The notes: generated by a model not told the origin, from the letters alone. Positions 15,548-59,469 are shown, counted from the first letter of the stretch. The stretch is 64,000 bases of DNA from Pseudomonadota bacterium (GCA_003576805.1 QEVM01000002.1:5666-69665); one strand, 5' to 3'. Made by a program: numbers and translations.

Positions 15548-15602
15548 CGATCGCCTCCTTCGCGCGGCACGGTAGACCGGCCGCGGAGGCCGCGGTAGCG
15601 CC

Positions 15603-17030: not shown

Positions 17031-17040
17031 CGCGCCGATG

Positions 17041-37725: not shown

Positions 37726-38886
37726 ATGCTGCGCGCCATGCGAAGCGCCGCGTTGCTCGCTCTCGCCGTCGTCGCGACCGCGGCTCCGCCCGGCGCCGCC
37801 GCGATCTTCGTCAACGAGATCATGGCCAGCCCGGGAGCGGCGGACTGGAACCAGGACGGCGTCGCGGACGCGCTCGCGGACGAGTACGTCGAGATCGTGA
37901 ACCGCGGCGCGCGCGAGGTGGACGTCGGCGGCTGGACGCTCTCCGACGAGGTCGGCGTGCGCCACGTGATCGCGTTCTTCACGATTCTGCGTCCGGGCGG
38001 CGCGCTCGTGGTGTTCGGCGGCGGAAGCCCGGCGGGCCTCCCCGGCTTCGCGGTCGCCGCTTCGACCGGCGCGCTCGGGCTGAACAACGCGGGCGACACG
38101 CTCGAGCTCCACGACGGGACGGCCGTCGTCGACAGCGTGGCGTACGGGTCCGCCACGGCGGGCGTCTCGTGGAACCGCGCGCCCGACGCGGAAGCGTCGG
38201 CTCCGCTCGCGCTGCACGACGCGGTCCCCGGCGCGGTCGGCGACGGCTCGCCCGGGCGCGGTGCGGATCAGGCCGAGTTCCAGGCGCCGCCGCTCTCGCT
38301 GCCGTTCATCAACGAGTGGCTGCCGCGCCCGCTGACGCTCGCGAACGACTGGAACGGCGACGGCGTCGCAGACGACCTCGGCGACGAGTTCGTGGAGATC
38401 GTGAACCCCGCGGACGGCACGACGATCGACCTCGAAGGCTGGACGCTGCGCGACGCGGCGACGCCGTATCACACGTTCGCGCCGGGCACGTTGCTCGCGC
38501 CGGGCGCGTCGATCGTGGTGGTCGCGGGCGTGCCGGCCGGCATCCCCGGTCTCGCGGTGCAGGGCATCAGTTGGGGCAACATCAGCAACAGCCTCGAGGA
38601 CCTCTACCTCGCCGACGAGCAAGGCGACCTCGTCAGCCACGTGCGCCACGACGGCCAGACCGCCGACATCGCGTGGAACCGCGATCCCGACGCGTCGCCG
38701 AGCACGCCGTTCTTCGCGCTGCACTACGACGTCTCGCCCGGCCATCTCTTCTCGTCGCCGGGCCGCGCGGCGGACGGCACGCCGTTTCCGACGCCGGAGC
38801 CGCACGGCGCGCCGCTCGCGGCGGCGCTGGCGCTGGGCGCGCTCGCGAGGCGGCGCGCGCGGAGGCGGATCCGCATTCGCGCGTGA
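37726..38886 (+). CDS. Secreted protein with two lamin-tail (LTD) domains and a PEP-CTERM anchor
   Basis: Signal peptide present. There are two copies of the pattern (I/F)(V/I)NE...DEYVEIVN...(V/I)DLxGWTLxD. C-terminus [27 protein letters not shown]. Confidence 0.75.
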
Positions 38887-39849: not shown

Positions 39850-41205
39850 TCAGCCGGCGTCCGGAGCGGCGGCGCGGAGCCGGCGCTGCGCGACCGCGTG
39901 CCACACGAGCCCGGCGCCGATCCCCGCGAGGCCGGTGAGCCAGATCGCGGGCTCGACCCAGAACGCGAGCCCGAGGCACGAGGCGAGCCCGCAGGCCGGC
40001 ACCCAGCGGCCGTAGAGCCGCTGCTCCGCGGGAAGCCGCAGCGCCGCGAGATTGGTGAGGGCGTAGTAGACGAGCACCGTGAAGGCGCTCAGGGACCACG
40101 TCGTGCGCACGCTGCCCGTCAGCGTCAGCGCGGCGATCGCGCAGCCCACCGCGACGACCGCCGCGCGCGGCGAGCGCCGCTCGCCGCCGAGGCGCGCGAA
40201 GCGCCGCGGCATGTCGCCGCGGCGCGACATCGCGAGCAGCACGCGGGAGAGGCCGAGCAGGAGATTCAGCAGCACGCCGAGCATCGCGGTCACCGCGCCC
40301 GCGGCCACCAGCCACGCGACGGCCGGCACGCCGAAGCCGCGCGCGACGATCTCGAGCGGCGCGGCCGCGGCGCGCGTCGCCTCCGCGAGGCGCGGCGCAC
40401 CGGCCGCCGCCACCGCCACGAACGCGACGGCGACGTAGAGCGCCATCGTCGTGACGAGCGTCACGACGATCGCCTTCGGGATGCTGCGCGCGGGATCGCG
40501 GATTTCCTCGCCGAGGGTCGCGATGCGTCCGTATCCGGTGTAGGCCACGAACGCGAGCGCGGTGGCGTGCAGGAGATCGCGCCACGCGGCGCCGTCCCCG
40601 CCGTAGAAGTCGGCGAGGTGCGCGGGCGCGCCGCGCAGCGCCGACGGCAGGCCGGCCACGACGAAGGCCGCCAGCGCGAGCAGCGTGAGCGAGACGATCG
40701 CCGCGTTGGCGCGGCTCGAGCGCTGCATGCCGCTCGCGACGAGGAGCGTGAGTACGCCCACCGCCGCGAGCGCGAGCGCGACCTGCGCCGCGCCGCCCGC
40801 GTGCCCCAGCGCGCCGAGCACGTAGCCGGCGAAGCCGAGGGCCGCCGTCGCCGCGGAGGCCGACTTCGCGCACAGGAACGTCCAACCGGCCGTGAAGCCC
40901 GCCGCCGGGCCGAGGTAGCGGTAGCCGTACTCGTAGGTCCCGCCGCTCACGGGGTGGCTCGCCGCGAGCTGCGCGCTCGAGAGCCCATTGAACGTGGCGA
41001 CGGCCGCGGCGAGCGCGACCGCGAGAATGACGGAGGGCCCCGCGACGCCCGCCGCGAGACCGATGCTGACGAAGATCCCCGTTCCGAGGATCGAGCCGAG
41101 GCCCATGAGCACTGCCCCCGGCAGGCCGACGATGCGCGGGAGTGCGTCCGGCCCGTCGCCCGGCGCGGGCGCGGTCAGAGGTAGGGCTCCACGCGCTCGC
41201 GCCAC
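39850..41205 (-). CDS. APC-superfamily amino acid/organocation permease
   Basis: Has LPRIVGLPGAVLMGLGSILGTGIFV and a 12-TM APC pattern. The start is uncertain: GTG 41205 (31-bp overlap with the upstream gene) or CTG 41178. Confidence 0.85.
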   Translation of the reverse strand: MARARGALPLTAPAPGDGPDALPRIVGLPGAVLMGLGSILGTGIFVSIGLAAGVAGPSVILAVALAAAVATFNGLSSAQLAASHPVSGGTYEYGYRYLGPAAGFTAGWTFLCAKSASAATAALGFAGYVLGALGHAGGAAQVALALAAVGVLTLLVASGMQRSSRANAAIVSLTLLALAAFVVAGLPSALRGAPAHLADFYGGDGAAWRDLLHATALAFVAYTGYGRIATLGEEIRDPARSIPKAIVVTLVTTMALYVAVAFVAVAAAGAPRLAEATRAAAAPLEIVARGFGVPAVAWLVAAGAVTAMLGVLLNLLLGLSRVLLAMSRRGDMPRRFARLGGERRSPRAAVVAVGCAIAALTLTGSVRTTWSLSAFTVLVYYALTNLAALRLPAEQRLYGRWVPACGLASCLGLAFWVEPAIWLTGLAGIGAGLVWHAVAQRRLRAAAPDAG

Positions 41206-42170
41206 GCGGATTCCGGGTCGTCCAGCATCCCGAGCCGGCGCGCGCAGTCGTAGAGGAGCACGCGGTCGGAGCCGGGGCGGCGCGGCGCCTTCGGGTGCAC
41301 GGAGTCGGACGGCAGCCCGCCGGTGAGGTGGAGGAACTGCGCGGCGGCGTGCTTGTAGGCGGGGATGGGCTCGCGGAAGCCGACGTTGCCGAGGTGCTGG
41401 AGGTCGTCGTTGCGCGCGAGGAAGCCGACGTCGCCGGAGCCGAGCGCGGCGTCGCGCGCGGCGAAGCGCTCGGGCGCGAAGGTGGCGAGCCCGAGCAGGT
41501 AGTCGCTGCCGTAGACGACCAGGTCGATCGCGAGGTCGTTGCCGGTGTAGACGCTCCACGACGGCCGCGCGCGGTCGCGCGCCGCCAGCCGGCGCAGCTC
41601 GGTGGCGCGGTCGAGCGACGAGTGCTTCGCGCCGTGCAGCTCGGGGATCTCGAGCAGGCGCGCGAAGGTCTCGTCGTCCCAGATCTCGCCGTGCGGCGCG
41701 AAGCGCGGCGAGAGCTCGAAGGCGAGCGCGCCGTTCGCCGTCGCGGCCGCGACCTCCGCGTAGAGCGCCGCCTTCTGCGGCGCGGGGAGCAGCTTCATGC
41801 GCGGGCACTGCACGATCACCGGCGTGCCGCCGCGGCGCTCGATCGCGGCGATCGCCTCGCGGTACGCCGCGCCCGGATCCGCCGCGCCGAGCGCGTACGC
41901 GCCGGCGTAGAAGCCGCTGCCGGGCGGCAGCGCGCGGCGCGCGGCGTCGAGCACGGCCTCGCGCTCGGCGGGGGCGAGCAGGTCGCCGAAGCCGGTGTCC
42001 ATGTTCACGGCGACGTCGAGGCCGGCCTCGCGCGTGCGCGCGACGTGCGCCTCGAACGCGGCCCAGTCGATCGCGTCGTCGGCGCGGTACGGCAGCAGCG
42101 CGGCGGCGATGCCGTGCGGGCGCCGCAGCGACGCGCGCGCCCAGGTGTCCGTCAGCGTGGTCGGTCTCAT
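41175..42170 (-). CDS. DHDPS/N-acetylneuraminate-lyase-like TIM-barrel protein (divergent)
   Basis: ATG at 42170 gives MRPTTLTD. Has GIAAALLPYRADDAIDWAAFEAHVARTREAGLDVAVNMDTGFGDLL and a GAKHSS Lys context. The family assignment is moderate. Confidence 0.65.
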   Translation of the reverse strand: MRPTTLTDTWARASLRRPHGIAAALLPYRADDAIDWAAFEAHVARTREAGLDVAVNMDTGFGDLLAPAEREAVLDAARRALPPGSGFYAGAYALGAADPGAAYREAIAAIERRGGTPVIVQCPRMKLLPAPQKAALYAEVAAATANGALAFELSPRFAPHGEIWDDETFARLLEIPELHGAKHSSLDRATELRRLAARDRARPSWSVYTGNDLAIDLVVYGSDYLLGLATFAPERFAARDAALGSGDVGFLARNDDLQHLGNVGFREPIPAYKHAAAQFLHLTGGLPSDSVHPKAPRRPGSDRVLLYDCARRLGMLDDPESAWRERVEPYL

Positions 42171-43633
42171 GCGCGCGCCTTTCGCTTGGCGGCCTCGAGC
42201 GCGGCGTGCTCGGGGCGCTCGCGGTAGAAGCCGTCGAGCGGATAGCAGCCCGACACCAGCCCGTTGCGCGGCGCCGTCGTGCAGTCGCTGAAGGTGCGGC
42301 ACAGCTTGCCGCGCGCGAGCGCGCGGCCGGCGAGCGCGTCGGCCGGCAGCTCGGGATACGAGAGCGCCATGCGGCCGAGGCCGACGGCGTCGAACCAGCC
42401 GTCGCGCAGGCAGGCCTGCGCGACGTGCGAGATCCACTCCTGGAGGTACGTCCAGCCCGACGAGAGCACGATCGCGTCCGGCACCGCCTGCTTCAGCGCG
42501 CGCGCCGCGCCGAGCAGGCGCGCGACGCCGGCGAGCGGGTCCTCCGGCGGCGGATAGCCGTCGCTCGGCGGGAAGAGGGCGGGGCGCTGCGCGTGCGGCG
42601 CGTAGTACGGGCTCGCCGACGTGACGTTCACCCAGCGCACGCCGCGCGCGGCGAGCCCCTGCACGAACGCGATCGGCTCGGCGAGGTCGATGCGGCTCGG
42701 ATCCTCCGCGTCGATGCCGAAGCCGACGCCGTACGGCGTCGGGTGCGGCTCGGGCTCGCCGCGGCCGTGCGCGCCGCGCCGGTGCGGCACGACGTCGAAG
42801 AGCGAGAGCCGCACGCCGATCGCGAGCCGCGGCGCCGCGGCGCGCACGGCGTCGATCGTCGCGAAGGCGAGCCGCGTGCGGTCGGCGAGCGACGGGCCGC
42901 CCCAGCGGCCCGTGCGCGTGCGCGCCGAGAGGAACTCGTGCAGCAGGTAGCCGTGGCAGTGCTTCACGTCGACGAAGTCGTAGCCGCAGCGCTCGGCCAG
43001 CGCGGCGGCGCGCGCGAAGTCGTCGATCAGCGCGTCCACCTCGCCGTCGGCGAGCACGGCGGCGTCGTCGGCGATGCCGACGCGCGCGTCGAGGATCGGG
43101 TGCCGGTACGCGACGCGCGGCCGGCGGCGTCCCGGCTCCGGCACCGACCAGCGCCCGCTGTGCGTCAGCTGGAGGCCGACGACCGGCGCGGGATGCCCGC
43201 TGCGCCGCGCCTCGCCCAGCAGCGCCTCGCGCAGCGCCGCGAGCCCGCGCTCGGTGTGCGCGGCGGCGACGAGCTGGTGCGGGTTGGCGCGGCCGTCGGC
43301 GCGCACCGCGACCGCCTCGCCGCCCCAGATCCAGCCCGCGCCCGACGCACCGAAGCGTCGCCAGCGGCGCAGCGTCAGCTCGCCGGGATTGCCGTCCTCG
43401 CTGCCGTCCCAGCCCTCCATCGGCTGGACCGCGAAACGGTTGGGCGCGACGAGGTTCGACGCGCCGAGCGCGCCGCGCGGGCCGTCGCCGAGCGCGAGCG
43501 GCCGCGCGAGCGGCGCGTCCGCGCCGGTCTCGACGGCGTCGTCGCACGGCAGCTCCGCACCGATCGCGGCGAGCCGCGCGCGCAGCGCGGCGGGCGTGCG
43601 CAGCGACGCGACGCGCGGCCAACGCTCGCTCAC
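42167..43633 (-). CDS. NADH:flavin oxidoreductase, Old Yellow Enzyme-type TIM barrel
   Basis: GTG at 43633. Motifs NRFAVQPMEG, GLQLTHSGR and FDFVDVKHCHGYLLHEFLS. 488 aa. Confidence 0.85.
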   Translation of the reverse strand: MSERWPRVASLRTPAALRARLAAIGAELPCDDAVETGADAPLARPLALGDGPRGALGASNLVAPNRFAVQPMEGWDGSEDGNPGELTLRRWRRFGASGAGWIWGGEAVAVRADGRANPHQLVAAAHTERGLAALREALLGEARRSGHPAPVVGLQLTHSGRWSVPEPGRRRPRVAYRHPILDARVGIADDAAVLADGEVDALIDDFARAAALAERCGYDFVDVKHCHGYLLHEFLSARTRTGRWGGPSLADRTRLAFATIDAVRAAAPRLAIGVRLSLFDVVPHRRGAHGRGEPEPHPTPYGVGFGIDAEDPSRIDLAEPIAFVQGLAARGVRWVNVTSASPYYAPHAQRPALFPPSDGYPPPEDPLAGVARLLGAARALKQAVPDAIVLSSGWTYLQEWISHVAQACLRDGWFDAVGLGRMALSYPELPADALAGRALARGKLCRTFSDCTTAPRNGLVSGCYPLDGFYRERPEHAALEAAKRKARA

Positions 43634-44457
43634 GGCGCCTCCAGCTCCTGGAGCAGCGCGCGCAGCCACGCCGCGTCCTCCGCGAGCTTCGCCTCCACCG
43701 GCTTCGGCTCCCAGGAGAGGAACTCGATCGTGAGCGGGCCGGCGTAGCCCGCCGCGAACGCGGCGGCGAGGATCGCGCGGTAGTCGAGCACGCCGCGCGC
43801 GAGCGACGCGCCGGGCGGCATCGGCCCGCTGCCGTCCTTGGCCGGCTGCACGTTCTTCAGGTGGTAGTAGCGCGCGAGCGGAACGAGCCGGCGCGCGTCG
43901 TCGGGCTGCGCCGCGGCCTCGCGCTGCGGCAGCAGGTCGAGCACCTGGTAGTTGAGCGCGAAGTTCGGGCGAGCGACGGCGGCGAACAGGCGGTCGATAC
44001 GCGCGGGCGTGTCGGCAAACGAACCGGCGTGGCGCTCGACGACGACGTCGATGCCGGCGGGCGCGGCCGCGTCGCAGGCGGCGCGCAGCAGCGCGGCGAC
44101 CTCCGCGAAGCCCTCTTCGGGCGCGCCGGCGATCGGCTCGGCCCACACGCGCAGCAGCGGGGCGCCGAGCGCCTCGGCGATGCGCACCGCCTGCTCGGCC
44201 GCGCGCGCGTCCACCGCCGACGCACCGCCGACTTCGGCGCGGCCGAGGTACGAGCCGTACGCGATCACGCGCGCGCCGGCGTCGCGGACCGCGCGCGCCG
44301 TGGCGCGGTGCACGTCCAACGGCGCCGCGGGATCGACGTGCGGCGCGCGCGCGGTCGCCTCGATGCCGTCGAGCCCGCTCGCGACGGCGAGCTCGGCGAC
44401 CGCGGCGAGCGGGCGATCCATGGCGGAGATCGAGCACAGTCCCAGCAGATGTTTCAC
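43630..44457 (-). CDS. Sugar phosphate isomerase/epimerase (xylose-isomerase-like TIM barrel)
   Basis: GTG at 44457 (or ATG 44421). Its stop overlaps the OYE start (GTGA). The AP_endonuc_2-like pattern ends in PLTIEFL. Confidence 0.8.
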   Translation of the reverse strand: MKHLLGLCSISAMDRPLAAVAELAVASGLDGIEATARAPHVDPAAPLDVHRATARAVRDAGARVIAYGSYLGRAEVGGASAVDARAAEQAVRIAEALGAPLLRVWAEPIAGAPEEGFAEVAALLRAACDAAAPAGIDVVVERHAGSFADTPARIDRLFAAVARPNFALNYQVLDLLPQREAAAQPDDARRLVPLARYYHLKNVQPAKDGSGPMPPGASLARGVLDYRAILAAAFAAGYAGPLTIEFLSWEPKPVEAKLAEDAAWLRALLQELEAP

Positions 44458-45464
44458 GCGATCCGCTCCCAGTCCGCGAGCCGCACCTCGTGCGCGAGCG
44501 GCGCGCCCTGCGCGAGCCGCTCGATCTCGTCGATCGCGAGCGTCGCGAGGCGCTGCGTCTCGGCGCCCATCGCGCCCGCGACGTGCGGCGTCAGGAACAC
44601 GTTGGGCAGATCGTAGAGCGGCGACTCGGCGGGCAGGATCTCCGGATCGGTGGTGTCGATCACCGCGTCGATGCGCCCGCTCGCGAGCTCCGCCGCGAGC
44701 GCGTCGCCGTCCACCAGCGCGCCGCGCGCGGTGTTGACGAAGACGGCGCCGTCGCGCAGCAGCGCGAGGCGGCGCGCGTCGATCAGATGGCGCGTCGCGG
44801 GCAGCGACGGCGCGTGCAGCGAGACCACGTCGGAGCGGCGCAGCAGGTCGTCGATCTCCACCCACTCCGCGCCGAGCGACGCCGCCTCGGCGGCGGACAC
44901 GAACGGGTCGTGGAGGAGCAGCGCGAAGTCGAAGGCGCGCAGGCGCTCGAGCACGAGCCGGCCGATGCGCGAGGCGCCGACGACGCCGACCGTCTTCCCG
45001 TAGTTCCCGATCGCGGGCACCTCGCGCGGCCACATCCGGAAGCCGCGCACCTCGCGATAGAGCCGCTGCAGCCGGAACGCGCGCTTGCCGGCGAGCAGGA
45101 TCGCCGCGACGGTGAACTCCGCGACCGGCACCGCGTTGGCGGCCGCCGCCGACGACACGCGCACGCCGCGCGCCAGCACGTCGGGATCGACGTGGCCCTT
45201 CACCGTGCCGGCGGCGTGCACGACGGCGCGCAGCTTCGGCGCGCGGGCGAGCAGCGCCGCGTCGATGCGCGGCGAGCCCCAGCCCGTGAGCAGGATCTCC
45301 GCCTGCGGCAGCAGCGCGCCGGCGCGCGCGTCGTCGAAGCGGGCGAGCGGCGCGGCGTCGGGCACGTCGGCGATCGCGGCGAGGCGCGCGCGGTGCGCGT
45401 CGGTCATGAGCTCGGTCGTCAGCGCCGGCGCCATCGCCAGCACGACCGTCGGGCGCTGCGCCAC
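44454..45464 (-). CDS. D-isomer-specific 2-hydroxyacid dehydrogenase, NAD-binding
   Basis: 336 aa. Motifs GKTVGVVGASRIGRLV (Rossmann), NTARGALVD and TPHVAG. Confidence 0.9.
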   Translation of the reverse strand: MAQRPTVVLAMAPALTTELMTDAHRARLAAIADVPDAAPLARFDDARAGALLPQAEILLTGWGSPRIDAALLARAPKLRAVVHAAGTVKGHVDPDVLARGVRVSSAAAANAVPVAEFTVAAILLAGKRAFRLQRLYREVRGFRMWPREVPAIGNYGKTVGVVGASRIGRLVLERLRAFDFALLLHDPFVSAAEAASLGAEWVEIDDLLRRSDVVSLHAPSLPATRHLIDARRLALLRDGAVFVNTARGALVDGDALAAELASGRIDAVIDTTDPEILPAESPLYDLPNVFLTPHVAGAMGAETQRLATLAIDEIERLAQGAPLAHEVRLADWERIA

Positions 45465-45508
45465 GCTCGATCTCCCCGGGTTGCGCGGAGCCGCGTACAG
45501 TAGCCGAC

Positions 45509-47551
45509 GTGGATCGCGCGCTCGCCTGGCCCGCTTCGCTCCCGCCCGACGATCGCGAGCGCGCGCCGTACACCGGCTTCGCGCGCGCGCACTGGGAGCA
45601 CGTCGCGGACGCGCTGCTCGCCGGCGTGCGGCGCTTCGCGTCGCCGCGCGGCGCGCTGCTCGCGCTGCCCGGCGGCCCGACGAGCATGAACGGCGCGCGC
45701 TCCGACGGACTCGAAGGCTTCGCGCGCACGTTCCTGCTCGCGGCGTTCCGGCTGCGCGGCGCGGACGGGCGCGCGCCCGGCGATCTCGCCGCGCGCTGCG
45801 CCGACGGGCTCGCCGCGGGCACCGAGCCCGGCCACGACGAGAGCTGGCCGGCGATCACGCCGACCTCGCAGCCGATGGTCGAGGCGGCGTCGATCGCGCT
45901 CGCGCTCTTCGAGACGCGGCCGTGGATCTGGGACGCGCTGCCCGACGCGGTCAGGCAGCGCACCGTCGCGTGGCTCTCGACGTCGTTCACGGGGCCGGCG
46001 CACCCGAACAACTGGCTGCTGTTCCCCGTCGTGGTGGACGCGTTCCTCGCTTCCGTCGGCGCGCCGCACCGGCCCGATCTCGCGGAGCGCAACCTCGCGC
46101 TCGTCGACGCGATGTACCGGCGCGACGGCTGGTACAGCGACGGCCCGGGCCGCCACTACGACCACTACGTCGGCTGGGCCATCCACTTCTACACCGTCTG
46201 GTGGCTGCGGATGGGCGGCGCCGCGCGCGATCCGGCGCGCGCCGCCCGCACCCGCGCGCGCATCCGGCGCTTCCTCGAAGACTTCGAGCACCTCTTCGCC
46301 GCCGACGGCGCGCCGCTCCACCAGGGCCGCTCGCTGATCTACCGCTTCGCCGCCGCCGCGCCGCTGTGGGCGGGCGCGATCGCCGGCGCGACGCCGCTCG
46401 CTCCCGGCGCGACGCGCCGCATCGCGAGCGGCGCGCTCCGCCACTTCCTCGCGCACGGCGCGATCGAGGACGGCCTCCTCACGATGGGCTGGCACCGCGC
46501 GTTCCCCGCGATGGCGCAGCGCTACTCGGGGCCGGCGTCGCCGTACTGGGCGAGCAAGGGCTTCGCGGGGCTCGTGCTGCCGAGCGCGCACCCGGTGTGG
46601 ACGGACGTCGAGGCGCCGCTGGCGGTCGAGCGCGGCGACTTCTGCCGCGCGCTCTCCGAGCCCGGCTGGCTGGTGCGCGGCACGCGAGCCGACGGCGTCG
46701 TGCGCGTCGCGAACCACGGCAGCGATCACTTCCCCGCGATTCCGCTCGGCGCGAGCGCCGCGCACGGCGACGATCCCTTCTACCGCAAGCTCGGCTACGC
46801 CACGCACGCGGGCCCGTGTCTCGGCGCCGAGGCCGACGCCGCGGACTGCGACGCGCAGGTGTCGCTGCTCGACGAGGCGGGCGTCGCGTCGCGACGCGCG
46901 CGCATCCACCCGATCGCGTGCGCCGACCGCTTCGCGGCGTCGTGCTTCTTTCCGGGCGAGCGCCACGTGATCGGGACGCAGCCGTTCCCGCTCTGGCTGG
47001 AGCGCGTCGAGACGGTGTCGATCGCGCGCGGCGCGCTCGAGGTGCGCATCCACCACGCGATGGCGTACCGCCCGCGCCGGCTGCGCGACGGCGGCTACGC
47101 GCTCGCCGGCGACGCCGCGCCCGCCGTCGAGCGCGGGCCGGGCTGGTGCGCGGTGCGGCGCGCCGACGGGCTCGTGTCCGCCGTCGTCGGGCTGCACGGC
47201 TTCGGCGCGGCGGACGCCGTCCGCTTCGAGGACGCGAACGCGTTCGGCCGCCTCGCGGCGGCGCCGTTCCTGCTCGGCGCCGATCTCGTGGGGCCCGAAG
47301 CGGTCTACGTGTCGCTGCACGCGTTCGGCGCGCAGCCGTTCGAGCCGGACGCGCTGCGCGCCGAGGTGCGCGCGCTGCGGGTCCGCGGCCGCCTCGTCGA
47401 GCTCGCCTTCGCCGACGGCGAGCGCTGCCTCGTGCAGCTCGTCGCGGCGGATGCGATCGACGTCGCGCTCGGCGGCGTGCGCGTCGCGGGCGCGGTGCGC
47501 TTCGCGCGCCTCGCGGCCGACGGCGCGCTGTTCGTCCGGCTGGACGGATGA
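45509..47551 (+). CDS. DUF2264 domain protein (cytoplasmic, no signal peptide)
   Basis: 680 aa, GTG start. N-terminus ERAPYTGFARAHWEHVADALL...SDGLEGFARTFLLAAFRL matches the DUF2264 N-terminal pattern as I recall it. Confidence 0.8.
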   Translation: MDRALAWPASLPPDDRERAPYTGFARAHWEHVADALLAGVRRFASPRGALLALPGGPTSMNGARSDGLEGFARTFLLAAFRLRGADGRAPGDLAARCADGLAAGTEPGHDESWPAITPTSQPMVEAASIALALFETRPWIWDALPDAVRQRTVAWLSTSFTGPAHPNNWLLFPVVVDAFLASVGAPHRPDLAERNLALVDAMYRRDGWYSDGPGRHYDHYVGWAIHFYTVWWLRMGGAARDPARAARTRARIRRFLEDFEHLFAADGAPLHQGRSLIYRFAAAAPLWAGAIAGATPLAPGATRRIASGALRHFLAHGAIEDGLLTMGWHRAFPAMAQRYSGPASPYWASKGFAGLVLPSAHPVWTDVEAPLAVERGDFCRALSEPGWLVRGTRADGVVRVANHGSDHFPAIPLGASAAHGDDPFYRKLGYATHAGPCLGAEADAADCDAQVSLLDEAGVASRRARIHPIACADRFAASCFFPGERHVIGTQPFPLWLERVETVSIARGALEVRIHHAMAYRPRRLRDGGYALAGDAAPAVERGPGWCAVRRADGLVSAVVGLHGFGAADAVRFEDANAFGRLAAAPFLLGADLVGPEAVYVSLHAFGAQPFEPDALRAEVRALRVRGRLVELAFADGERCLVQLVAADAIDVALGGVRVAGAVRFARLAADGALFVRLDG

Positions 47552-49593
47552 CGGCGCACGACCCGGTCGGGCATCCGATCCTCGCCTACGAGCTGCGCCC
47601 GCGCGGCCCGGCGCCCGCCGGCATCCCGGCCGAGCCCCTCGTCGATCCGCACGCCGAGCGCGCCGCGCCCGGCGACTACGACGCGCGGCGCGCCGCCTTC
47701 CTCGACTTCGTGCGGCGCAGCCCGACGCCGTCGCACCTCGCCGCGGTCTTCCACGAGGTGGCGCGCGTCGCCGCGGGCGGGCCCGTGCACGCGCCGCTCT
47801 TCGAGGCGGCGCTCGACTACGTGGACGCGCGCCTCGACTGCGCCGACTTCGTCCAGCACGGCCTGCTGCGGCTGCTGCTCCAGCTCGCCGGCGAGCCGCG
47901 CCTGCCGCGCGCGCTGCTCGCGCGCGCGAAGCGCACGACGCTCGGCTTCAAGTACCACCCGTCCGAGCCCGGCGCGGACTCGCTCTGCACCTGGACCGAA
48001 AACCACCAGATTTTGTTCGCGGCGGCGGATCTCGTCGCGTCGGAGCGCTTCCCGGACGAGGTCTTCGCGAACACCGGCGAGCGCGGCCGCGAGCGCCGCG
48101 CGCGCGCGCGCGGCCGCGTGCTGCGCTGGCTCGACCTGCGTTTCCGCACCGGCTTCTCCGAGTGGCTCTCGCACGTCTACTACGACGAGGACCTCGTCGC
48201 GCTGCTGACGCTCGTCGACTTCTCGCTGGACGCGGAGATCCGCACGCGCGCGGCGATGGTCGCGGACGTCGTCCTGCTCGACATGGCGCTCCATCACTTC
48301 CGCGGCGCGTTCGCGTCCACGCACGGCCGCTCCTACGAGCGCGCCAAGAAGTGGACGCGCGAGGAGAACACCACCGACGCGGCGAAGCTGCTCTTCGGCG
48401 CCGGCTCGTTCGCGCGCAGCGAGAACCAGTGCGCCGTGTCGCTGGCGCTCTCGCCGCGCTACCGGCCGCCGCCCGCGATCCTCGCGATCGCCGCCGACGG
48501 CGAGCGAGCAGCCGTCACCGTCCGCCAGCGCATGGGCATCGCGCTCGGCGACCTCGCGCGCTTCGGGCTCGATCCGCGCCGCGACGAGGACGCCTTCGCG
48601 CTGCTCGCGATGGAGGCGTACACGGACCCGCGCACGATCGCGGCGTTCGTGCGCCTGCTCGAGCGCTGGCGCTGGTGGGACAACGCCTTCTTCGCGCCGT
48701 TCGCGGCGAGCCGCGCGCTGCTGCGCGGGCTCGCGCGCGTGCGCGCGCTGCCGCTCGTCGCGAAGGCGTTCGAGTGGGATCTCGCGCGCAACGCGCGGCC
48801 GGCGGTCGACCTCGTCACGCACCGCACGCCCGACACCCAGCTCTCGAGCGCGCTCGACTGGCGGCCCGGCTTCGGCGGCGACCAGCAGCACGTGTGGCAC
48901 GCGTCGCTCGGCGGCGACGCGGTCTGCTTCACGACGCATCCGGGGCCCATCTCCGCGCGCTCGCCGGGCTGGTGGACGGGGAGCGCCGTGCTGCCGCGCG
49001 TCGCGCAGGTGGAGAACGTCGCGATCGCGCTCTACCGCATCCACCGGCGTCCCGCGCTGCACGTCGCGAGCCGCCCTCTCTTCACGCACGCCTGGCTGCC
49101 GCGCGACCGCTTCGACGAGCTGCGCGAGCAGGGCGGCTGGCGCTTCGCGCGCCGCGGCGACGGCTACCTCGCGCTCTTCGCGAGCCCGGCGGCGCACTGG
49201 AACGAGTCGCCCGACGCGGGCGAGGACCGCGGCCGCGAGCTCGTCGCGCACGGCCGCGAGACGGTCTGGATTTGCGAGCTGGGACGCCGGGCTAGCGACG
49301 GACCCTTCGACGACTTCGCGAGCCGGATCGCGGCGGCGCCGCTCGCGGTCCGCGGGCTCGCGGTCGCGTACGAGTCGCCGTCCCAGGGCCGGCTCGAGTT
49401 CGCGTGGCGCGGCCCGCTGCGCCAGCGCGGCCGCGCGGTCCCGCTGCGCGACTTCCCCCGCTACGACGCGCCGTGGGTGCGCGCGGACTACCCGTCGGAG
49501 CGCATCGAGGTGCGCGCCGGCGGGCACGGGCTCGCGCTCGACTGGCCGCGCGGCGTCCGCGCGCTGCACGGGCCCGTCACAGAGGCGTGCTAG
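47548..49593 (+). CDS. Uncharacterised 681-aa protein, paralogue A (helical N-half plus beta-rich C-half; no signal peptide)
   Basis: ATG at 47548 overlaps the DUF2264 stop (ATGA). Clearly homologous to 53570..55831 (TENHQILF/SENHQIIF, SEWLSHVYYDEDL/DEWHSNVYYQKDV, LHHFRGAFASTHGRSY/LHNFRGAFAATRGRTY). Confidence 0.75.
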   Translation: MTAHDPVGHPILAYELRPRGPAPAGIPAEPLVDPHAERAAPGDYDARRAAFLDFVRRSPTPSHLAAVFHEVARVAAGGPVHAPLFEAALDYVDARLDCADFVQHGLLRLLLQLAGEPRLPRALLARAKRTTLGFKYHPSEPGADSLCTWTENHQILFAAADLVASERFPDEVFANTGERGRERRARARGRVLRWLDLRFRTGFSEWLSHVYYDEDLVALLTLVDFSLDAEIRTRAAMVADVVLLDMALHHFRGAFASTHGRSYERAKKWTREENTTDAAKLLFGAGSFARSENQCAVSLALSPRYRPPPAILAIAADGERAAVTVRQRMGIALGDLARFGLDPRRDEDAFALLAMEAYTDPRTIAAFVRLLERWRWWDNAFFAPFAASRALLRGLARVRALPLVAKAFEWDLARNARPAVDLVTHRTPDTQLSSALDWRPGFGGDQQHVWHASLGGDAVCFTTHPGPISARSPGWWTGSAVLPRVAQVENVAIALYRIHRRPALHVASRPLFTHAWLPRDRFDELREQGGWRFARRGDGYLALFASPAAHWNESPDAGEDRGRELVAHGRETVWICELGRRASDGPFDDFASRIAAAPLAVRGLAVAYESPSQGRLEFAWRGPLRQRGRAVPLRDFPRYDAPWVRADYPSERIEVRAGGHGLALDWPRGVRALHGPVTEAC

Positions 49594-49616: not shown

Positions 49617-50117
49617 ATGTCGGCCAAGAAGCGCGAGAAGAAGGCTCGGAAGAAGACGGAGAAGAAGCAGGCCAAGCAGGCGAAGAAGCAGGAGAAGCAG
49701 GCCCGGAAGACCGCGCGGGCGCAAGGCCCGGAGCCGGTGAAGACGGGCAAGGGCGCGACGCCGCTCGAGGTCGCGCAGGCCGTCGTCCCGCTGCTCCGCT
49801 CGGGCGCGGCGCACGAGGTCGAGAGCGCGTGGCTCGCGCCGGGCGTCGAGTCGGTCGAGGGCGCCGGCGTCGCGCTCGCGTGGTCCGGCAAGCCCGCCGT
49901 GCTCGCGAAGTACCGCGCGTGGGAGGCCGACCACGAGATCCACTCGATGCAAGTCGACGGCCCGTGGGTCGGCGCGACCGGCTTCGCGCTGCGCTACGCG
50001 ATCGACGTCACGCAGAAGTCGACCGGGCAGCGCTCGCAGATGGAAGAGATCGCGGTGTACACGGTGAAGAACGGCAAGATCGTGCGCGAGGAGTTCCACT
50101 TCCGCGTGCCGGGATAG
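49617..50117 (+). CDS. NTF2/SnoaL-like domain protein with a Lys-rich basic N-terminal tail
   Basis: ATG at 49617 with SD GAAGGAGG. Tail MSAKKREKKARKKTEKKQAKQAKKQEKQARKTARAQ. The C-terminus ...EIAVYTVKNGKIVREEFHF is SnoaL-like. Confidence 0.65.
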   Translation: MSAKKREKKARKKTEKKQAKQAKKQEKQARKTARAQGPEPVKTGKGATPLEVAQAVVPLLRSGAAHEVESAWLAPGVESVEGAGVALAWSGKPAVLAKYRAWEADHEIHSMQVDGPWVGATGFALRYAIDVTQKSTGQRSQMEEIAVYTVKNGKIVREEFHFRVPG

Positions 50118-50141: not shown

Positions 50142-51833
50142 CTACGCGCCCCGACGCGCCGCCAGCTTCAGCGACTCCGCCCGCGCGCGCTCCTTGCGAT
50201 CGAGCGCGCGCAGGAGCTGGATGCGCACCCTGCGCCGCGCGCTCTGCATGCTGCCGCGCTCGCCCGCGAGGTCGCGCAGGAAGGCGGGCGAGTCGACGTC
50301 GAGCGGCGGCCAGCGGAAGCTGCCGTCCGGCTCCGCGCGCACGAACACGAGCCCGGACTCGTCTCCCTGCACGAGCCGCCAGTCGGGCCTCGCGTAGAAC
50401 CACGCGATCAGCTGCCGCGCGTGGAACGTCGGGTTCAGCAGCACCGTTCCGAACCGGTACTTGGCGTCGAGCCGCAGGAACTCGCGCGGCGTGACGAAGC
50501 GCAGCGCGGCGAGCTTCTTCGGTCCGTAGATCTCGAGGCGGCCGTCCACGAGCACCTCGTAGCGCGGGTGGAGCCGCCAGCTCAGATAGCCGCCGTCCCA
50601 CATGTGGTGCGCGATGGGGCCCGGCGGGCGCTCGCGCTCGATCCAGTCCGTGGCGAGCGCGGGCACGTAGAGGCCGACCACGCCGACGCCGCGCTCGTGG
50701 ACGGTGCCGATGCGCGCGTGGTAGCTGCCTCGCGCGACGTCGACCGCCGCGATCAGCAACGCGGCCGCGACCGCCGCGTTCGCCGCGTGACGCGCCCACG
50801 CGGAGCGCATGCGCCCGTCGAGCCACTCGTTCGCGTTGCGGACGAACAGCGGCGCGGCCACGATCGCGAACAGCGCGAGGTTGCGGTTCGCCATCAGCCC
50901 CAACGCCAGGAAGGCCGCGAAGGCGAGCAGGTCGGCGCTGCGGTCGCGGTTGCGGCGCCAGTTGGCCGCGATCGCCGCGGCGCAGGCGAGCGCGAGCGCC
51001 GCCGGCGCGACCGCCATCGCGCGCGGCACGGCCGGGTGCCAGAGCGGCACGAGCTCGAGGTTGTATCCCCGTCCCATGCCGTCGTCGCCGCCCGGCCCGA
51101 TCATGCCGAGCTGGCGCAGCGGGTAGAGCGCTCCGTCGGCGAAGTTCGGATTCGCGAACGACGCCAGGCACGCGAGCACGACGACGCGCAGCAGCCGCTG
51201 CGCGCGGCCGCTGCGCGCGGGCTCGCGCGCGGCGCGGAGCTGCTCCGAGACGAGCTCGATCGCACAGAGCGCGATGCCGAGCGCGAACAGTCCGTGGACG
51301 TTCGCCCAGAGCAGCTGGAGCGGCACGATCGCGTACACCAGCGCGTCGTTGCGGCGCCGGTCGCGTGCGAGGAGCGCCACGACGCCCGCGAGGAGCACGA
51401 ACGAGAGCAGCTCCGGTCGGTCGCGGAAGCGCTCGCTCGCGACGAGCAGCATCGCGCCGAGCCCCAGCCCGGCGACGAAAGGGCGCTCGCGCCGCCAGCC
51501 CACGGTGGCGAGGATCGCGACGAGCAGCGCCACCAGCGCGGCCTTCACGACGACGACGCCCGCGTGATCGGCGACGGAGTGGACGCCCGCGAGCGCGAGC
51601 TGGAACAGCCAGTGCACGTCGATCCAGCGCGCGTCGGGCACGCTGTAGGTGAAGACGTCGGCGCGCGGCACCGCGCCCGTCTCGGCGATCCAGTAGCCGG
51701 TGCGCAGGTGCCACCAGTAGTCGGTGCTGAGGATCTTCTCGAGGCCGGTGGCGACCGCCAGCGCCAGCAGCGCGGCGCCCACGCCGAAGACGATCCACCG
51801 GCTCGGTGCGTCGGAGCGGAGCGGCGAGTTCAT
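50142..51833 (-). CDS. Polytopic membrane protein with a large C-terminal soluble domain (GT-C-like glycosyltransferase fold suspected)
   Basis: ATG at 51833. 563 aa with more than 10 predicted TM helices. First loop YWWHLRTGYWIAETGAVPRADVFTYS. Function not established. Confidence 0.65.
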   Translation of the reverse strand: MNSPLRSDAPSRWIVFGVGAALLALAVATGLEKILSTDYWWHLRTGYWIAETGAVPRADVFTYSVPDARWIDVHWLFQLALAGVHSVADHAGVVVVKAALVALLVAILATVGWRRERPFVAGLGLGAMLLVASERFRDRPELLSFVLLAGVVALLARDRRRNDALVYAIVPLQLLWANVHGLFALGIALCAIELVSEQLRAAREPARSGRAQRLLRVVVLACLASFANPNFADGALYPLRQLGMIGPGGDDGMGRGYNLELVPLWHPAVPRAMAVAPAALALACAAAIAANWRRNRDRSADLLAFAAFLALGLMANRNLALFAIVAAPLFVRNANEWLDGRMRSAWARHAANAAVAAALLIAAVDVARGSYHARIGTVHERGVGVVGLYVPALATDWIERERPPGPIAHHMWDGGYLSWRLHPRYEVLVDGRLEIYGPKKLAALRFVTPREFLRLDAKYRFGTVLLNPTFHARQLIAWFYARPDWRLVQGDESGLVFVRAEPDGSFRWPPLDVDSPAFLRDLAGERGSMQSARRRVRIQLLRALDRKERARAESLKLAARRGA

Positions 51834-51960: not shown

Positions 51961-53565
51961 ATGCTGCGCGGCGCGATGCGCGCTCGCGCCCGACTCGTCT
52001 GCTTCGCGCGACTCGCCGCGCTGCTCGCGGCGGCAGGCGCCGCGCTCGCGTGCGGCGCGGGCGAGGGCGATCTCGCGGGCGTCGATCCCGCCGCGTTCGC
52101 CGACGCCGCGCAGGGCGCCGCGGCGCCGGCGTCGGTGATCGCGCCGCTCGCGGCGGACGCCGCGCCCGCGCGCAAGCCGAACGTGGTGCTGATCGTGGCC
52201 GACGACCTCGGCTGGGGCGACCTCGGGTCGTACGGCGGCGCGCTCGCGACGCCGTCGATCGACCGGCTCGCCGCGGAGGGCGTGCGCTTCACCGACTTCT
52301 ACGCGAGCGCGCCGGTCTGCTCGCCGTCGCGCGCGGGCCTGCTCACCGGCCGCTATCCGCTGCGCACCGGCATCAGCTACATCGTGTTCGCGGCCGAGGC
52401 GTCGTTCCGGCAGCGGCTCTCGCTGCTGGCCGCGAAGCTCGGCACGCGGCTCGGCGCCAGCGACTTCCACGACTCGTTCGTCGCCGGGCTGCCCGCTTCC
52501 GAAATCACGATCGCCGAGGCGCTGCGCGTCGCGGGCTACGCGACCGGCATGGTCGGCAAGTGGCACCTCGGCGACTTCTCGCACGACCGCCAGTACCTGC
52601 CCACGCGCCACGGCTTCGACTTCTTCGAGGGGCTGCCGCACTCGAACGACGAGTTCCCGGTCGCGTACTGGCGCGGCGAGCAGGAGCAGACGCCCGACAT
52701 CGGCCTCGCCCAAGAGGGGATCACCGCGGACCTGACGCGCGCGGCGATCGAGTTCGTCGAGGCGAACCGCGACCGCCCGTTCTTCCTCTACTTCGCGCAC
52801 AAGAACGTGCACCTGCCGCTCTACCCCGCGGAGCGCTTCCGCGGCGCGTCGCCGGCCGGCGCGTACGGCGACTCGGTCGCGGAGCTCGACGCGAGCGTCG
52901 GCGAGATCGTGGCGGCGCTCGCGCGGCTCGGCCTGCGCGACGACACGCTCGTGCTGTTCACGAGCGACAACGGGCCCTGGTTCCAGGGCAGCGCCGGCGG
53001 GCTGCGCGGGCGCAAGGGAATGCCGTTCGAGGGAGGAGTGCGCGTGCCGCTCCTCGCGTCGTGGCCCGGCGCGCTGCCGGCGGGCCGCGTCGTCGGCGCG
53101 CCGGCGATGAACATCGACGTCTTCCCGACGCTGCTCGCGCGCGCCGGCCTGGCCGCGCCGCGCGACCGCGCGATCGACGGCCGCGACCTCTGGCCGCTGC
53201 TCACGGGCGCTGCGTCGGCGTCGCCGCACGAGGCGCTCTTCTTCTTCCACGACAAGCAGCTCGACGGCGTGCGCGCCGGCGCCTGGAAGTACTACCGGCA
53301 CGTGAACCGCCTGTGCTGGCCGCTGCCGTACGACAAGCCCGGCACGCTGCCCGGCGAGCAGACCGCCGGCTACGTGCACGCCGACGCGAAGACGGGCCGC
53401 AGCGCGAACCTGCTCGACGCGGGCCCGATGCTCTACGACCTCGCGCGCGATCCCGGCGAGGCGTACGACGTCGCCGAGCGCCGGCCCGACGAAGCCGCGC
53501 GCCTCGAAGCGCTCGCCGCCGCCTGGGAGGCGGCGTTCGTCGCGAACCCGCGCGGCTGGCGCTGA
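51961..53565 (+). CDS. Lipoprotein sulfatase (Cys-type, formylglycine-dependent)
   Basis: Lipobox AGAALACG. Motifs PNVVLIVADDLGWGDLG, CSPSRAGLLTGRYP (CxPxR) and GKWHLG. Confidence 0.92.
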   Translation: MLRGAMRARARLVCFARLAALLAAAGAALACGAGEGDLAGVDPAAFADAAQGAAAPASVIAPLAADAAPARKPNVVLIVADDLGWGDLGSYGGALATPSIDRLAAEGVRFTDFYASAPVCSPSRAGLLTGRYPLRTGISYIVFAAEASFRQRLSLLAAKLGTRLGASDFHDSFVAGLPASEITIAEALRVAGYATGMVGKWHLGDFSHDRQYLPTRHGFDFFEGLPHSNDEFPVAYWRGEQEQTPDIGLAQEGITADLTRAAIEFVEANRDRPFFLYFAHKNVHLPLYPAERFRGASPAGAYGDSVAELDASVGEIVAALARLGLRDDTLVLFTSDNGPWFQGSAGGLRGRKGMPFEGGVRVPLLASWPGALPAGRVVGAPAMNIDVFPTLLARAGLAAPRDRAIDGRDLWPLLTGAASASPHEALFFFHDKQLDGVRAGAWKYYRHVNRLCWPLPYDKPGTLPGEQTAGYVHADAKTGRSANLLDAGPMLYDLARDPGEAYDVAERRPDEAARLEALAAAWEAAFVANPRGWR

Positions 53566-58089: not shown

Positions 58090-59469
58090 CTACTGCGCCG
58101 GAACGCGCTGCGCCGCGCCGTCGCGCAGCGCGAGCTGGTCGCGGATCTGCTCGTGCCGCCGCCGCGTCAGCGGATAGGCGCGCAGCAGCAGCACGCCGGC
58201 CACCAGGAAGAACGCGGGCGCGGCGCCCGTCATCCAGCGGATCGCCTCGCGCGCGGTCTCGCTCTGCTCGGCGCCCTTGCGGTAGCCGACCAAGTCGAGG
58301 ATCGACATCACCAGGAACACTCCGAGCGCGCCGCCGAGCTTGCGCAGGAAGGTGAAGACGCCGTTGTAGAGCCCCTCGCGGCGCTCGCCGGTCTCGAGGT
58401 CGTCCTGGTCGATCACCTCGCCGAGCATCGACCACGGCATCAGATCGACGACCGCGTAGCCGACGCCGACGACCGGCACGTAGGCGAAGATCACCCAGCG
58501 CGGCCACTCGGGCGTGATCCACACCAGGCCGAGCGACGTCACCGCCCACCACAGCGAGCCGATCGTGAACACCTCGGCCTTGTCGCGGCCCTGCGAGAGG
58601 CGCAGCCAGAAGGGCAGGGCGAGCACCACCGAGGACAGGAACAGGATCATCACGAGCTCGAAGTCGTCGGGGCGCAGCAGCCAGAAGGTCGTGTAGAGGA
58701 TCAGCAGCGCGCCGGCGAGGTCCATCGCGATGCGGCCCATGATGTAGACGAGCGTGAGCTGCAGGAAGGTGCGGTGGAAGAAGACGACCTTCAGGCTCTC
58801 GAAGTGACCCTGCTCGGACGGGCGCGTGCGGAACTCGGGGCGCTCGAAGGTGACGCGGTGCACGGCGATCCAGGGCAGCGCCATCGCCACGCCGAAGATC
58901 GCGCCCGCCGTCGCGAAGCCCTCCTTGCCGCCGCCGAGCGCCTCCGCGACCGGCCGCACCGCGACCGCCGCGAACACGCCGACGAGCGAGCCCAGCGTGC
59001 GATAGGTGTTGAGCGACGTGCGCGCGTCGTAGTCGGTCGCCATCTCCGGCAGGATCGCCATGTACGGCACCGTGAGGACCGTCATCGAGAGCGCGTGCAC
59101 CAGGTAGATCGCGGTGTAGTAGGCGAAGCGGCCCTCGGTGGACGCGAACGGCGCGTCCACCCAGAGCAGCCAGAACGAGACGCCGTAGGGGATCGCGCCG
59201 ATCAGGAACCACGGCCGGCGCCGCCCGCCGCGCCACGGCGTGCGGTCGCTGATGCGGCCCATCAGCGGATCGGCGAAGGCGTCGAGCGCGCGCGCGATCA
59301 GCGGCACCAGGCCCGCGAGCGCCGCGCGCAGGTCCACCACCTGGGGCAGGAAGTACGAGGCGTAGATCAGCGAGAGCGCCGCGAGCGAGGTGTTGATGGT
59401 GACGTCGCCGAGCGCGTAGACGCTCTTGCGCGCCGGCGTGAGCGGCGGGTGGCGGCCGGCGTCGTTCAC
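58090..59469 (-). CDS. MFS transporter, glycoside-pentoside-hexuronide (GPH/MFS_2) type
   Basis: GTG at 59469 overlaps the xth stop (GTGA). Has DAFADPLMGRISDRTPWRGGRRRPWFLIGAIP, the GPH loop 2-3 motif. 459 aa. Confidence 0.85.
   Translation of the reverse strand: MNDAGRHPPLTPARKSVYALGDVTINTSLAALSLIYASYFLPQVVDLRAALAGLVPLIARALDAFADPLMGRISDRTPWRGGRRRPWFLIGAIPYGVSFWLLWVDAPFASTEGRFAYYTAIYLVHALSMTVLTVPYMAILPEMATDYDARTSLNTYRTLGSLVGVFAAVAVRPVAEALGGGKEGFATAGAIFGVAMALPWIAVHRVTFERPEFRTRPSEQGHFESLKVVFFHRTFLQLTLVYIMGRIAMDLAGALLILYTTFWLLRPDDFELVMILFLSSVVLALPFWLRLSQGRDKAEVFTIGSLWWAVTSLGLVWITPEWPRWVIFAYVPVVGVGYAVVDLMPWSMLGEVIDQDDLETGERREGLYNGVFTFLRKLGGALGVFLVMSILDLVGYRKGAEQSETAREAIRWMTGAAPAFFLVAGVLLLRAYPLTRRRHEQIRDQLALRDGAAQRVPAQ

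Follow-up and report, generated by a model that had tools for sequence, protein, structure and literature searches.

We analysed a stretch of 64,000 nucleotides from the metagenome-assembled genome (MAG) of a Pseudomonadota bacterium (GCA_003576805.1, QEVM01000002.1:5666-69665; hereafter the window), with attention to two divergent gene groups at positions 39,850 to 49,593 which a first-pass annotation had described as a seven-gene catabolic locus. The source entry is an uncultured "Proteobacteria bacterium" (locus tag DCC71_00620), and its nearest relatives are labelled Myxococcota or Deltaproteobacteria. The base composition of the window is 70-77% G+C, which makes raw lists of open reading frames unreliable; the gene layout was therefore set by a plot of codon-position GC (GC3 frame) together with a GC3-based gene caller. 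The locus was found to contain the following features, with lengths in amino acids (aa) or base pairs (bp).

39850-41106 (or 41205), minus strand: APC-family amino-acid permease (Pfam AA_permease, 164 bits)
41175-42170, minus strand: DUF993/DHDPS-like protein, 331 aa (Pfam DUF993, 28.6 bits against a cutoff of 24)
42167-43633, minus strand: OYE-like flavoenzyme, 488 aa (Pfam Oxidored_FMN, 78 bits, residues 65-283 only)
43630-44457, minus strand: XI-like TIM barrel, 275 aa (Pfam AP_endonuc_2, 88 bits)
44454-45464, minus strand: D-isomer-specific 2-hydroxyacid dehydrogenase, 336 aa (Pfam 2-Hacid_dh_C, 165 bits)
45465-45508, no strand: divergent spacer of 44 bp, carrying the conserved element GTACAGTAGC
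45509-47551, plus strand: DUF2264 protein, a GH154/BcGDH-type homolog by sequence, 680 aa (Pfam PF10022, 377.5 bits)
47548-49593, plus strand: U681, 681 aa (no family match; AlphaFold2 model and fold search)

The genes, the start/stop overlaps and the 44-bp spacer laid out in the first-pass annotation were all borne out in the sequence, and independent gene calls agreed with them. Overlap junctions were located at 44454-57 (GTGA), 43630-33 (GTGA), 42167-70 (ATGA) and 47548-51 (ATGA), the last of which couples the DUF2264 and U681 genes translationally. As overlaps of four bases are common in high-GC operons, these junctions were taken as operon structure and as nothing unusual. A GGAG ribosome-binding site lies 8 nt upstream of the start of the 2-hydroxyacid dehydrogenase gene. 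On the other hand, the 31-bp overlap proposed for the permease gene is doubtful: it needs a GTG start at 41205 (451 aa), whereas both NCBI and Logan begin the permease at M34 (start 41106, 418 aa), leaving a gap of 68 bp. The same genes in the same order were present in two independent Logan assemblies of the organism (SRR7051044 and SRR7051045), and the locus is thus not an assembly chimera. The proposed family labels agreed with Pfam and NCBIfam, except that the protein called "DHDPS/NAL-like" scores as DUF993 and its similarity to DHDPS is weak. Neither a kinase nor a regulator was found from 38.9 to 58 kb, in line with what had been stated for the locus. Scans of the window with Rfam and for tRNAs were negative.

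The conservation of the locus was determined against 80 genome loci and several metagenome contigs encoding U681 homologs, and 89 loci were screened with every protein of the locus. A five-gene core, consisting of the genes for the 2-hydroxyacid dehydrogenase, the XI-like TIM barrel, the OYE-like and the DUF993-like proteins divergent from U681, was syntenic in at least six other Myxococcota-type MAGs. All four chain genes stand divergent from a U681 homolog in L003, L008, L013, L014, L016 and L017, and three of them do so in L015. The closest relatives with identical flanks are L008, L013 and L014. In L008, whose flanks are the same from Hsp33 to PPK, only the four-gene minus chain lies opposite the U681 homolog, with one unassigned 334-aa gene downstream of the latter. 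A DUF2264 gene was found in two relatives, L012 and L014; L014 has the same core with DUF2264 in the same place, while L012 holds DUF2264, U681 and SnoaL genes as well as a 77%-identical ortholog of U747, a second member of the U681 family described below. The APC permease was found in 0 of the 89 loci. The seven genes do not therefore form one conserved unit as had been proposed; the block is a conserved five-gene core with variable accessories.

Outside the Myxococcota the core was met in part. The DUF993-like and OYE-like genes are adjacent wherever present and accompany U681 homologs in three phyla with differing gene orders, such as DUF993-OYE-ThuA-GFO-MFS_2-U681 in Chloroflexota (7 loci) and OYE-DUF993-U681 in a Spirochaetales MAG (L037). 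The XI-like TIM barrel and the 2-hydroxyacid dehydrogenase are specific to Myxococcota. We also observed a protein of 333-334 aa which stands beside the four-gene chain in L091 (11435-12436) and next to U681 in L008 (12054-13058), with a mutual identity of 59%; searches of Pfam and PDB gave no match for it, and the window does not encode it.

No match was obtained for U681 in Pfam, in NCBIfam or among PDB sequences, the last of these searched with both the single sequence and a 57-sequence profile, and none of the 57 family members matched Pfam at E<=5. The family is nevertheless large: U681 has more than 700 close homologs, and when 1.84 billion representative proteins were searched with a profile, 3,646 clusters passed the threshold of E<=1e-3. 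Clustered at 50% identity, the family numbers about 3,600 and has members in Myxococcota, Chloroflexota, Spirochaetota, Alphaproteobacteria, Firmicutes and haloarchaea. A literature search for a newly described polysaccharide lyase (PL) family corresponding to it gave nothing relevant.

An AlphaFold2 model of U681 was obtained with a predicted local distance difference test score (pLDDT) of 92.9 and a predicted template modelling score (pTM) of 0.94. The model has a helical α-toroid at residues 44-412 and a β-sandwich at residues 420-675. When it was compared with the PDB by Foldseek, as the first-pass annotation had recommended, the significant matches were exclusively polysaccharide lyases: all six at E<=1e-3 are PL8 hyaluronate/chondroitin AC lyases or the PL15 alginate lyase (probability 0.82-0.99), followed below that set by PL35 chondroitinase, chondroitinase ABC and heparinase III. 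The template modelling (TM) scores were only 0.2-0.3, so that the resemblance is one of fold class and not a close match. Among members at 25-39% identity, E151-N152-H153, Y211 and R261 do not vary and H514 hardly does; these conserved residues are located at helix N-termini in the model. A homolog from Rhizobium retains S-E-N-H, A-Y-Y, G-R-A-Y and T-H-A-Y at the invariant positions. The Asn-His pair followed by a Tyr about 58 residues later presumably recalls the catalytic sets of PL15, PL17 and PL21, as a likeness of motif and spacing and not of superposed structures; the His-Tyr spacing in those three families is 54-56. We take U681 to be cytoplasmic; its model has a two-domain fold like that of polysaccharide lyases, and the large family to which it belongs has no name.

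The gene neighbourhoods of the U681 family in other organisms gave further evidence on its role. A Glyco_hydro_88 domain, either N- or C-terminal, was present in 5 of 9 long family members; among these fusions is one that shares 48% identity with U681 along the entire protein and whose gene comes directly after that of an MFS_2 (GPH) transporter. An MFS_2 (GPH) gene lies immediately upstream of the U681 homolog in 42-44 loci. Among cultured bacteria, the family member is annotated as hypothetical and forms the arrangements hypothetical(840 aa)-GH88-GH28-ABC transporter-LacI in Rhizobium anhuiense, hypothetical-GH88-ABC-LacI-kduD-kduI beside rhamnose catabolic genes in Thioclava, kduD-kduI and then hypothetical-GH88-GH28 in Sinorhizobium fredii NGR234, and hypothetical-GH88 in Subdoligranulum. 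Because of the GH88 fusions and the adjacency to GH88, GH28, KduI/KduD and MFS_2 genes, the U681 family is linked to Δ4,5-unsaturated uronates; the evidence, which comes from several phyla, is consistent with the family making or handling such residues at the non-reducing end of imported oligosaccharides. The simplest reading of these neighbourhoods is that β-eliminative lyase is the predicted activity of the family. The earlier proposal of a link to the lower part of a uronate-type pathway was thus right in spirit, as the relatives of U681 in cultured bacteria adjoin GH88, KduI and KduD.

When compared with the known toroid and β-sandwich lyases (PL8, PL15 Atu3025, PL12 heparinase III and PL35), U681 is alike in its predicted domain architecture and its pairing with GH88, and presumably also in the arrangement of the Asn-His pair and Tyr and in a His in the β-domain. 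It differs in that sequence similarity was undetectable even with the profile, and in its low TM-scores.

Some further neighbourhoods of U681 homologs were recorded. On a plasmid of Haladaptatus sp. DYSN1 (L097, NZ_CP120472.1 321011-346786), an XI-like isomerase gene comes after a homolog that shares 37% identity with U681. The surroundings, which include GNAT genes, a gene for an acetylxylan esterase and no fewer than eight genes for Gfo/Idh/MocA oxidoreductases, look like an unusual sugar-oxidation island. In L009, a PcRGLX_1st gene (15458-17809; PL26-type exo-rhamnogalacturonan lyase-like) lies 3.5 kb from a Chloroflexota U681 homolog, which is itself preceded by Amidohydro_2, SDR and MFS_2 genes.

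The DUF2264 protein had been regarded as an unknown, which is outdated. PF10022, currently labelled "BcGHD" in Pfam, covers 2-352 of its 353 profile positions with 377.5 bits against a cutoff of 25, and the PDB matches, named "β-D-glucuronic acid dehydratase", are 9o4u (E 4.8e-23) and 9nwf (E 3.6e-22). These belong to the CAZy family "GH154", which a 2025 JBC study of Bacteroides caccae PUL25 characterised as a dehydratase and not a hydrolase (PMC12269599). The enzyme of that study, BcGDH, converts β-glucuronate at the non-reducing end into a Δ4,5-unsaturated uronate, priming it for GH88, and its essential residues are N176, N177, W178, F181, Y229, R285, Y289 and Y354, together with E74 and R78 (PMC12269599). 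In a phmmer alignment to 9o4u, in which the chain index equals the residue number minus 5, the window protein was found to hold N-N-W-L-L-F, Y220, R274, Y278 and Y339 at the active-site positions; E74 and R78 fall outside the aligned stretch, and the E69-x3-R73 motif of the window protein was matched to them by eye only. Literature under the names DUF2264 or DUF993 yielded no papers, the link for DUF2264 being made through the PDB matches and "GH154". The catalytic domain comprises residues 26-370 and is followed by a 310-aa C-terminal domain that has no family assignment, a second domain of the kind also present in BT3677. No signal peptide was detected. Judged from its sequence, the DUF2264 protein is a homolog of the GH154/BcGDH-type β-D-glucuronate 4,5-dehydratases with its active-site residues intact.

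We then considered the enzymes of the minus-strand chain. The DHDPS-like protein matched DHDPS structures in the PDB at E 4e-7, and G180-x-K182-H-S-S and D58-T59-G60 were invariant in 14 orthologs from two phyla. We take K182 to be at the Schiff-base lysine position, with G-x-K-H-S-S resembling the DHDPS/NAL motif G-x-K-x-[ST]-[ST] and D58-T59-G60 resembling G-T-T-G. The AlphaFold2 model of the OYE-like protein (pLDDT 87, pTM 0.90) is a complete OYE-fold barrel, for which the best Foldseek matches were TsER/YqjM-type thermophilic-like ene-reductases (E 2e-21, target-normalised TM-score 0.80). In the alignment to 5ocs and NemA, its K224-H225-C226-H227-G-Y229 corresponds to H-x-x-H-G-Y; it retains the Tyr and the second His, and the invariant K224 takes the place of the first active-site His. 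The protein also has an invariant C445-x5-C451-x11-C463 tail and an N-terminal extension of 55 residues. The family has thousands of close homologs, which are annotated only as NADH:flavin oxidoreductase, and a literature search on OYE enzymes in uronate pathways gave nothing relevant. A function as an amine dehydrogenase was rejected for the OYE-like protein since its fold matches are ene-reductases.

For the XI-like TIM barrel, the best PDB sequence match was AsbF, which is weak; from its sequence this protein is a candidate sugar-acid isomerase or dehydratase. Hydroxypyruvate isomerase was rejected as an assignment, having no NCBIfam support. The closest PDB relatives of the 2-hydroxyacid dehydrogenase are PGDH, glycerate dehydrogenase and glyoxylate reductase. 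No Pfam or NCBIfam assignment to KduI, KduD, KdgK or KdgA was obtained anywhere in 30-64 kb. With the Thioclava proteins as queries, KduI gave nothing in the window and KduD gave only a weak generic SDR match at 14.8-15.1 kb.

The 44-bp spacer had been proposed as a place to search for shared promoter or operator elements, and a conserved element was found there. The sequence GTACAGTAGC (45495-45504) precedes the DUF2264 start codon by 4 nt, and it is the one place in the window that matches the pattern GTACRSTASC, for which 0.11 matches would be expected by chance. Eight other Myxococcota-type loci, two of which are without the minus chain, have the same element just upstream of their U681 or DUF2264 homolog. 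In the window and in L014, DUF2264 is inserted downstream of the spacer element and ahead of U681. A scan of the spacer for a sigma-70 promoter consensus and a terminator found nothing; the element could serve as an operator or, with its TAnnnT, as a conserved -10-like promoter element.

The region extends further than the first-pass annotation had placed it. The locus it described is real, and the functional island reaches to about 55.8 kb, with a secreted U681 paralog and a sulfatase just downstream that had been missed. The downstream genes are as follows.

49617-50117, plus strand: SnoaL-like small protein, 166 aa (Pfam SnoaL_5, 48 bits)
50142-51833, minus strand: polytopic membrane protein, 563 aa (no Pfam match; several hydrophobic segments in the sequence)
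51976-53565, plus strand: S1 formylglycine-type sulfatase, 529 aa from the Logan-called start (Pfam Sulfatase, 200.8 bits)
53570-55813, minus strand: U747, a secreted/lipoprotein-type paralog of U681, 747 aa (35% identity to U681)

U747 is a full-length paralog of U681 (E 6e-103) which keeps the W-S-E-N-H and Y-Y motifs and begins with a signal/lipoprotein-like peptide ending in Cys; its orthologs adjoin U681 homologs in L012 and in L016 (71% identity). The sulfatase carries the motif C-S-P-S-R (C/S-x-P-x-R) and a signal or lipoprotein-like N-terminus, and its gene is divergent from that of the 563-aa membrane protein; neither of the two was found at the corresponding position in related loci. 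The SnoaL-like protein has a Lys-rich N-terminus, and L012 is the only other locus with its gene at this position. Apart from the missing GH88, the combination of lyase-like enzyme, sulfatase and GH154 protein matches the published minimal set for degrading glycosaminoglycans (GAGs), which suggests that the core may have been extended in this genome for a sulfated, glucuronate-bearing polymer.

Other genes of the window were noted as well. An MFS_2 (GPH) transporter gene at 58090-59469 (minus strand) has an Exo_endo_phos gene as its neighbour. The transporter gene recurs in L008, L013 and L014, some 3-8 kb downstream of U681, and its product is about 31% identical to the MFS_2 proteins encoded directly before U681 homologs in Chloroflexota; this transporter may be the real importer. 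At 21506-25911 (plus strand), a molybdopterin oxidoreductase gene is followed by an overlapping gene for a 746-aa protein with a DMFA2_C (N,N-dimethylformamidase β-subunit-like) C-terminal domain, and a LysR regulator gene lies near this pair at 26504-27403. A right-handed β-helix (Beta_helix/NosD) protein, of a fold common to pectate lyases and GH28, is encoded at 13471-14739 (plus strand), 25 kb from the locus. Between the nitroreductase and Hsp33 genes, at 37726-38886 (plus strand), lies the gene for a secreted protein that has two lamin-tail domains (LTD).

Taking the above together, we read the region as a cytoplasmic catabolic island for uronic-acid-containing, possibly sulfated, oligosaccharides, built around the five-gene core, and we put the probability of this reading at roughly 55%. 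According to it, the secreted U747 and the sulfatase would trim an extracellular acidic glycan, and the resulting oligosaccharides would be imported; in other phyla it is a GPH-type MFS_2 gene that is coupled to U681 homologs. Cytoplasmic U681 would then cleave at uronate by β-elimination, using N152, H153 and Y211 with R261 and H514, and the DUF2264 protein would dehydrate saturated terminal glucuronate. Both reactions would lead to a Δ4,5-unsaturated uronate and hence to 4-deoxy-5-keto-uronate, an α-keto acid, which the four minus-strand enzymes would convert without phosphorylation. The individual roles within the chain are what we infer: the XI-like TIM barrel would act as the isomerase, the 2-hydroxyacid dehydrogenase as the reductase and the Schiff-base lysine enzyme as an aldolase or dehydratase, while reduction of an enone or enoate intermediate would fall to the OYE-like enzyme, this being the weakest step.

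The proposed island was compared with the systems that it most resembles. The chondroitin pathway of B. caccae PUL25 comprises the lyase BcPL35, the dehydratase BcGDH/GH154 and BcGH88 (PMC12269599), and haloarchaeal GAG loci comprise a lyase, a sulfatase, GH88, GH154 and a transporter (PMC13260240). As in these loci, a GH154-type dehydratase stands beside a lyase-fold enzyme and a sulfatase in the window, and Δ4,5-unsaturated uronate would be made by both lyase and dehydratase; the set of lyase, sulfatase and GH154 is the published minimal GAG-degrading set minus GH88 (PMC12269599; PMC13260240). In contrast to them, the window has no GH88/GH105, SusC/D, ABC system or KduI/KduD, its lyase-fold protein belongs to no named PL family, and its set of OYE-like, DHDPS-like, XI-like and 2-hydroxyacid dehydrogenase proteins is unusual.

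As for the KduI/KduD/KdgK/KdgA (Eda) pathway, the chain occupies the same position relative to U681-family genes as KduI/KduD do in Thioclava and NGR234, and it has an isomerase, reductase and aldolase-type composition; it differs in that none of its four proteins (0/4) is homologous to those of the pathway, that it includes no kinase, and that it has an extra flavin enzyme of ene-reductase type. Because KduI/KduD lie near a U681-family gene in those two organisms, the chain would be a non-orthologous, kinase-less replacement for KduI/KduD/KdgK/KdgA, and because it has no kinase, any lower route would be non-phosphorylative. A more far-reaching proposal, for which the odds fall somewhat short of even and which we advance tentatively, is that U681 founds a new and very large polysaccharide/oligosaccharide-lyase family, whose product would be consumed in Myxococcota and Chloroflexota by an undescribed kinase-less route in which a Lys-for-His OYE-type enzyme and a DHDPS-like Schiff-base enzyme replace KduI/KduD/KdgK/KdgA.

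Several observations weigh against the uronate-oligosaccharide reading. The usual GH88/GH105 partner of the dehydratase was not found in the 64-kb window by tblastn with three GH88 domains and the Rhizobium and Thioclava GH88 proteins, and tblastn with the GH88 domains over the 89 loci found none; with no GH88/GH105, KduI, KduD or KdgK gene in the window, the enzyme releasing the unsaturated uronate is not accounted for. The four-gene chain also occurs without U681, beside an EamA transporter gene, in L091, and the chain may thus accept the monomer directly. Moreover, outside Myxococcota the commonest partners of U681 homologs are ThuA and Gfo/Idh/MocA, whose genes immediately precede MFS_2-U681 in 32-37 of about 80 loci. 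These partners point to a 3-keto-glycoside route, in which a neutral or mixed glycoside would be degraded by oxidation, β-elimination and reduction, and which we hold to be unlikely. A dehydrogenase would make the 3-keto sugar (the 2-hydroxyacid dehydrogenase here; ThuA with Gfo/Idh/MocA in Chloroflexota and Spirochaetota), the XI-like TIM barrel would be a β-eliminase or hydratase, the OYE-like enzyme would reduce the enone, and U681 would be a non-lyase, either glycoside-cleaving or hydrating. In known 3-keto-glycoside pathways it is XI-like TIM barrels that act as eliminases and hydratases, and both the XI-like and the OYE enzymes would gain natural roles, an enone being an obvious substrate for an ene-reductase. 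The Haladaptatus homolog, trailed by an XI-like gene and several Gfo/Idh/MocA genes, fits this route too. ThuAB has been described as a 3-ketoglycoside dehydrogenase (PMC8121099). Like the ThuAB/Gfo pathways (Sinorhizobium/Agrobacterium ThuAB; B. thetaiotaomicron BT2157-2160, PMC8121099), the window has an XI-like TIM barrel and a dehydrogenase. It differs from them in holding no ThuA or Gfo/Idh/MocA gene. D-2-hydroxyacid dehydrogenases are not known as sugar C3 oxidases, which counts against the route, and no lyase-fold protein, GH88 or GH154 is known from the ThuAB/Gfo pathways. The route also leaves unexplained the GH88 fusions and the GH88/KduI/KduD/GH28 adjacency, the coupling to a glucuronate dehydratase, and the exclusively lyase-type fold matches with their E-N-H/Y/R/H constellation.

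The occurrence of the chain without U681 in L091 would also fit mere juxtaposition, in which the chain is an independent small-molecule module, U681 and DUF2264 are a separate glycan module, and their divergence is lineage inheritance. U681 homologs without the chain are present in many loci (L001, L007, L018, L019 and others), and the locus occupies a variable spot between Hsp33 and PPK. We nonetheless judge this account improbable, as the DUF993-like and OYE-like genes are linked to U681 in three phyla with differing gene orders, which inheritance alone can hardly be credited with, and as a conserved cis-element lies in the shared spacer. Least credible of all, and in our view very improbable, is the original reading, in which all seven genes form a pair of operons and the APC permease takes up their substrate, an amino sugar or an amino-acid conjugate. 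It has in its favour that the permease gene is co-directional with the minus chain at a distance of 68 bp or less, that oxidation of C-N bonds is conceivable for a flavin mononucleotide enzyme from the wider OYE/TMADH superfamily, and that BcGDH was assayed on chondrosine, an amino-disaccharide (PMC12269599). The permease, however, is missing even from the three relatives with identical flanks; its homologs at 70-79% identity, one of them in Enhygromyxa, are stand-alone genes in unrelated neighbourhoods; the OYE-like model resembles ene-reductases and not amine dehydrogenases; and the transporters that recur with the module elsewhere are of MFS_2, ABC and EamA types. A role of the APC permease as the pathway importer was hence rejected. 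The permease is probably a bystander, an unrelated neighbour, and with it, and with its doubtful operon overlap, the basis for a nitrogen-containing substrate is gone.

Under the preferred reading, the locus is most likely a variant of uronate-glycan utilisation in which the GH154/BcGDH enzyme is of a recently characterised kind, the lyase-like family is unnamed and the lower pathway is undescribed. From the sequence, the GH154 dehydratase would here be cytoplasmic, in a non-Bacteroidota organism, and with no GH88 partner nearby. Large pools of carbon are tied up in acidic glycans, among them pectins, glycosaminoglycans, ulvan, gum-type arabinogalactans and bacterial exopolysaccharides, and predictions of how these are broken down draw on catalogues of carbohydrate-active enzymes. 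A lyase-like family of about 3,600 clusters, lying beside GH88, GH28, KduI/KduD and sugar transporters and everywhere called "hypothetical", points to a blind spot in these catalogues. As members of the U681 family are present in the tractable Sinorhizobium fredii NGR234, Rhizobium and Thioclava, the prediction is directly testable, and the co-conserved pair of OYE-like and DHDPS-like enzymes may reveal an alternative fate of unsaturated uronates.

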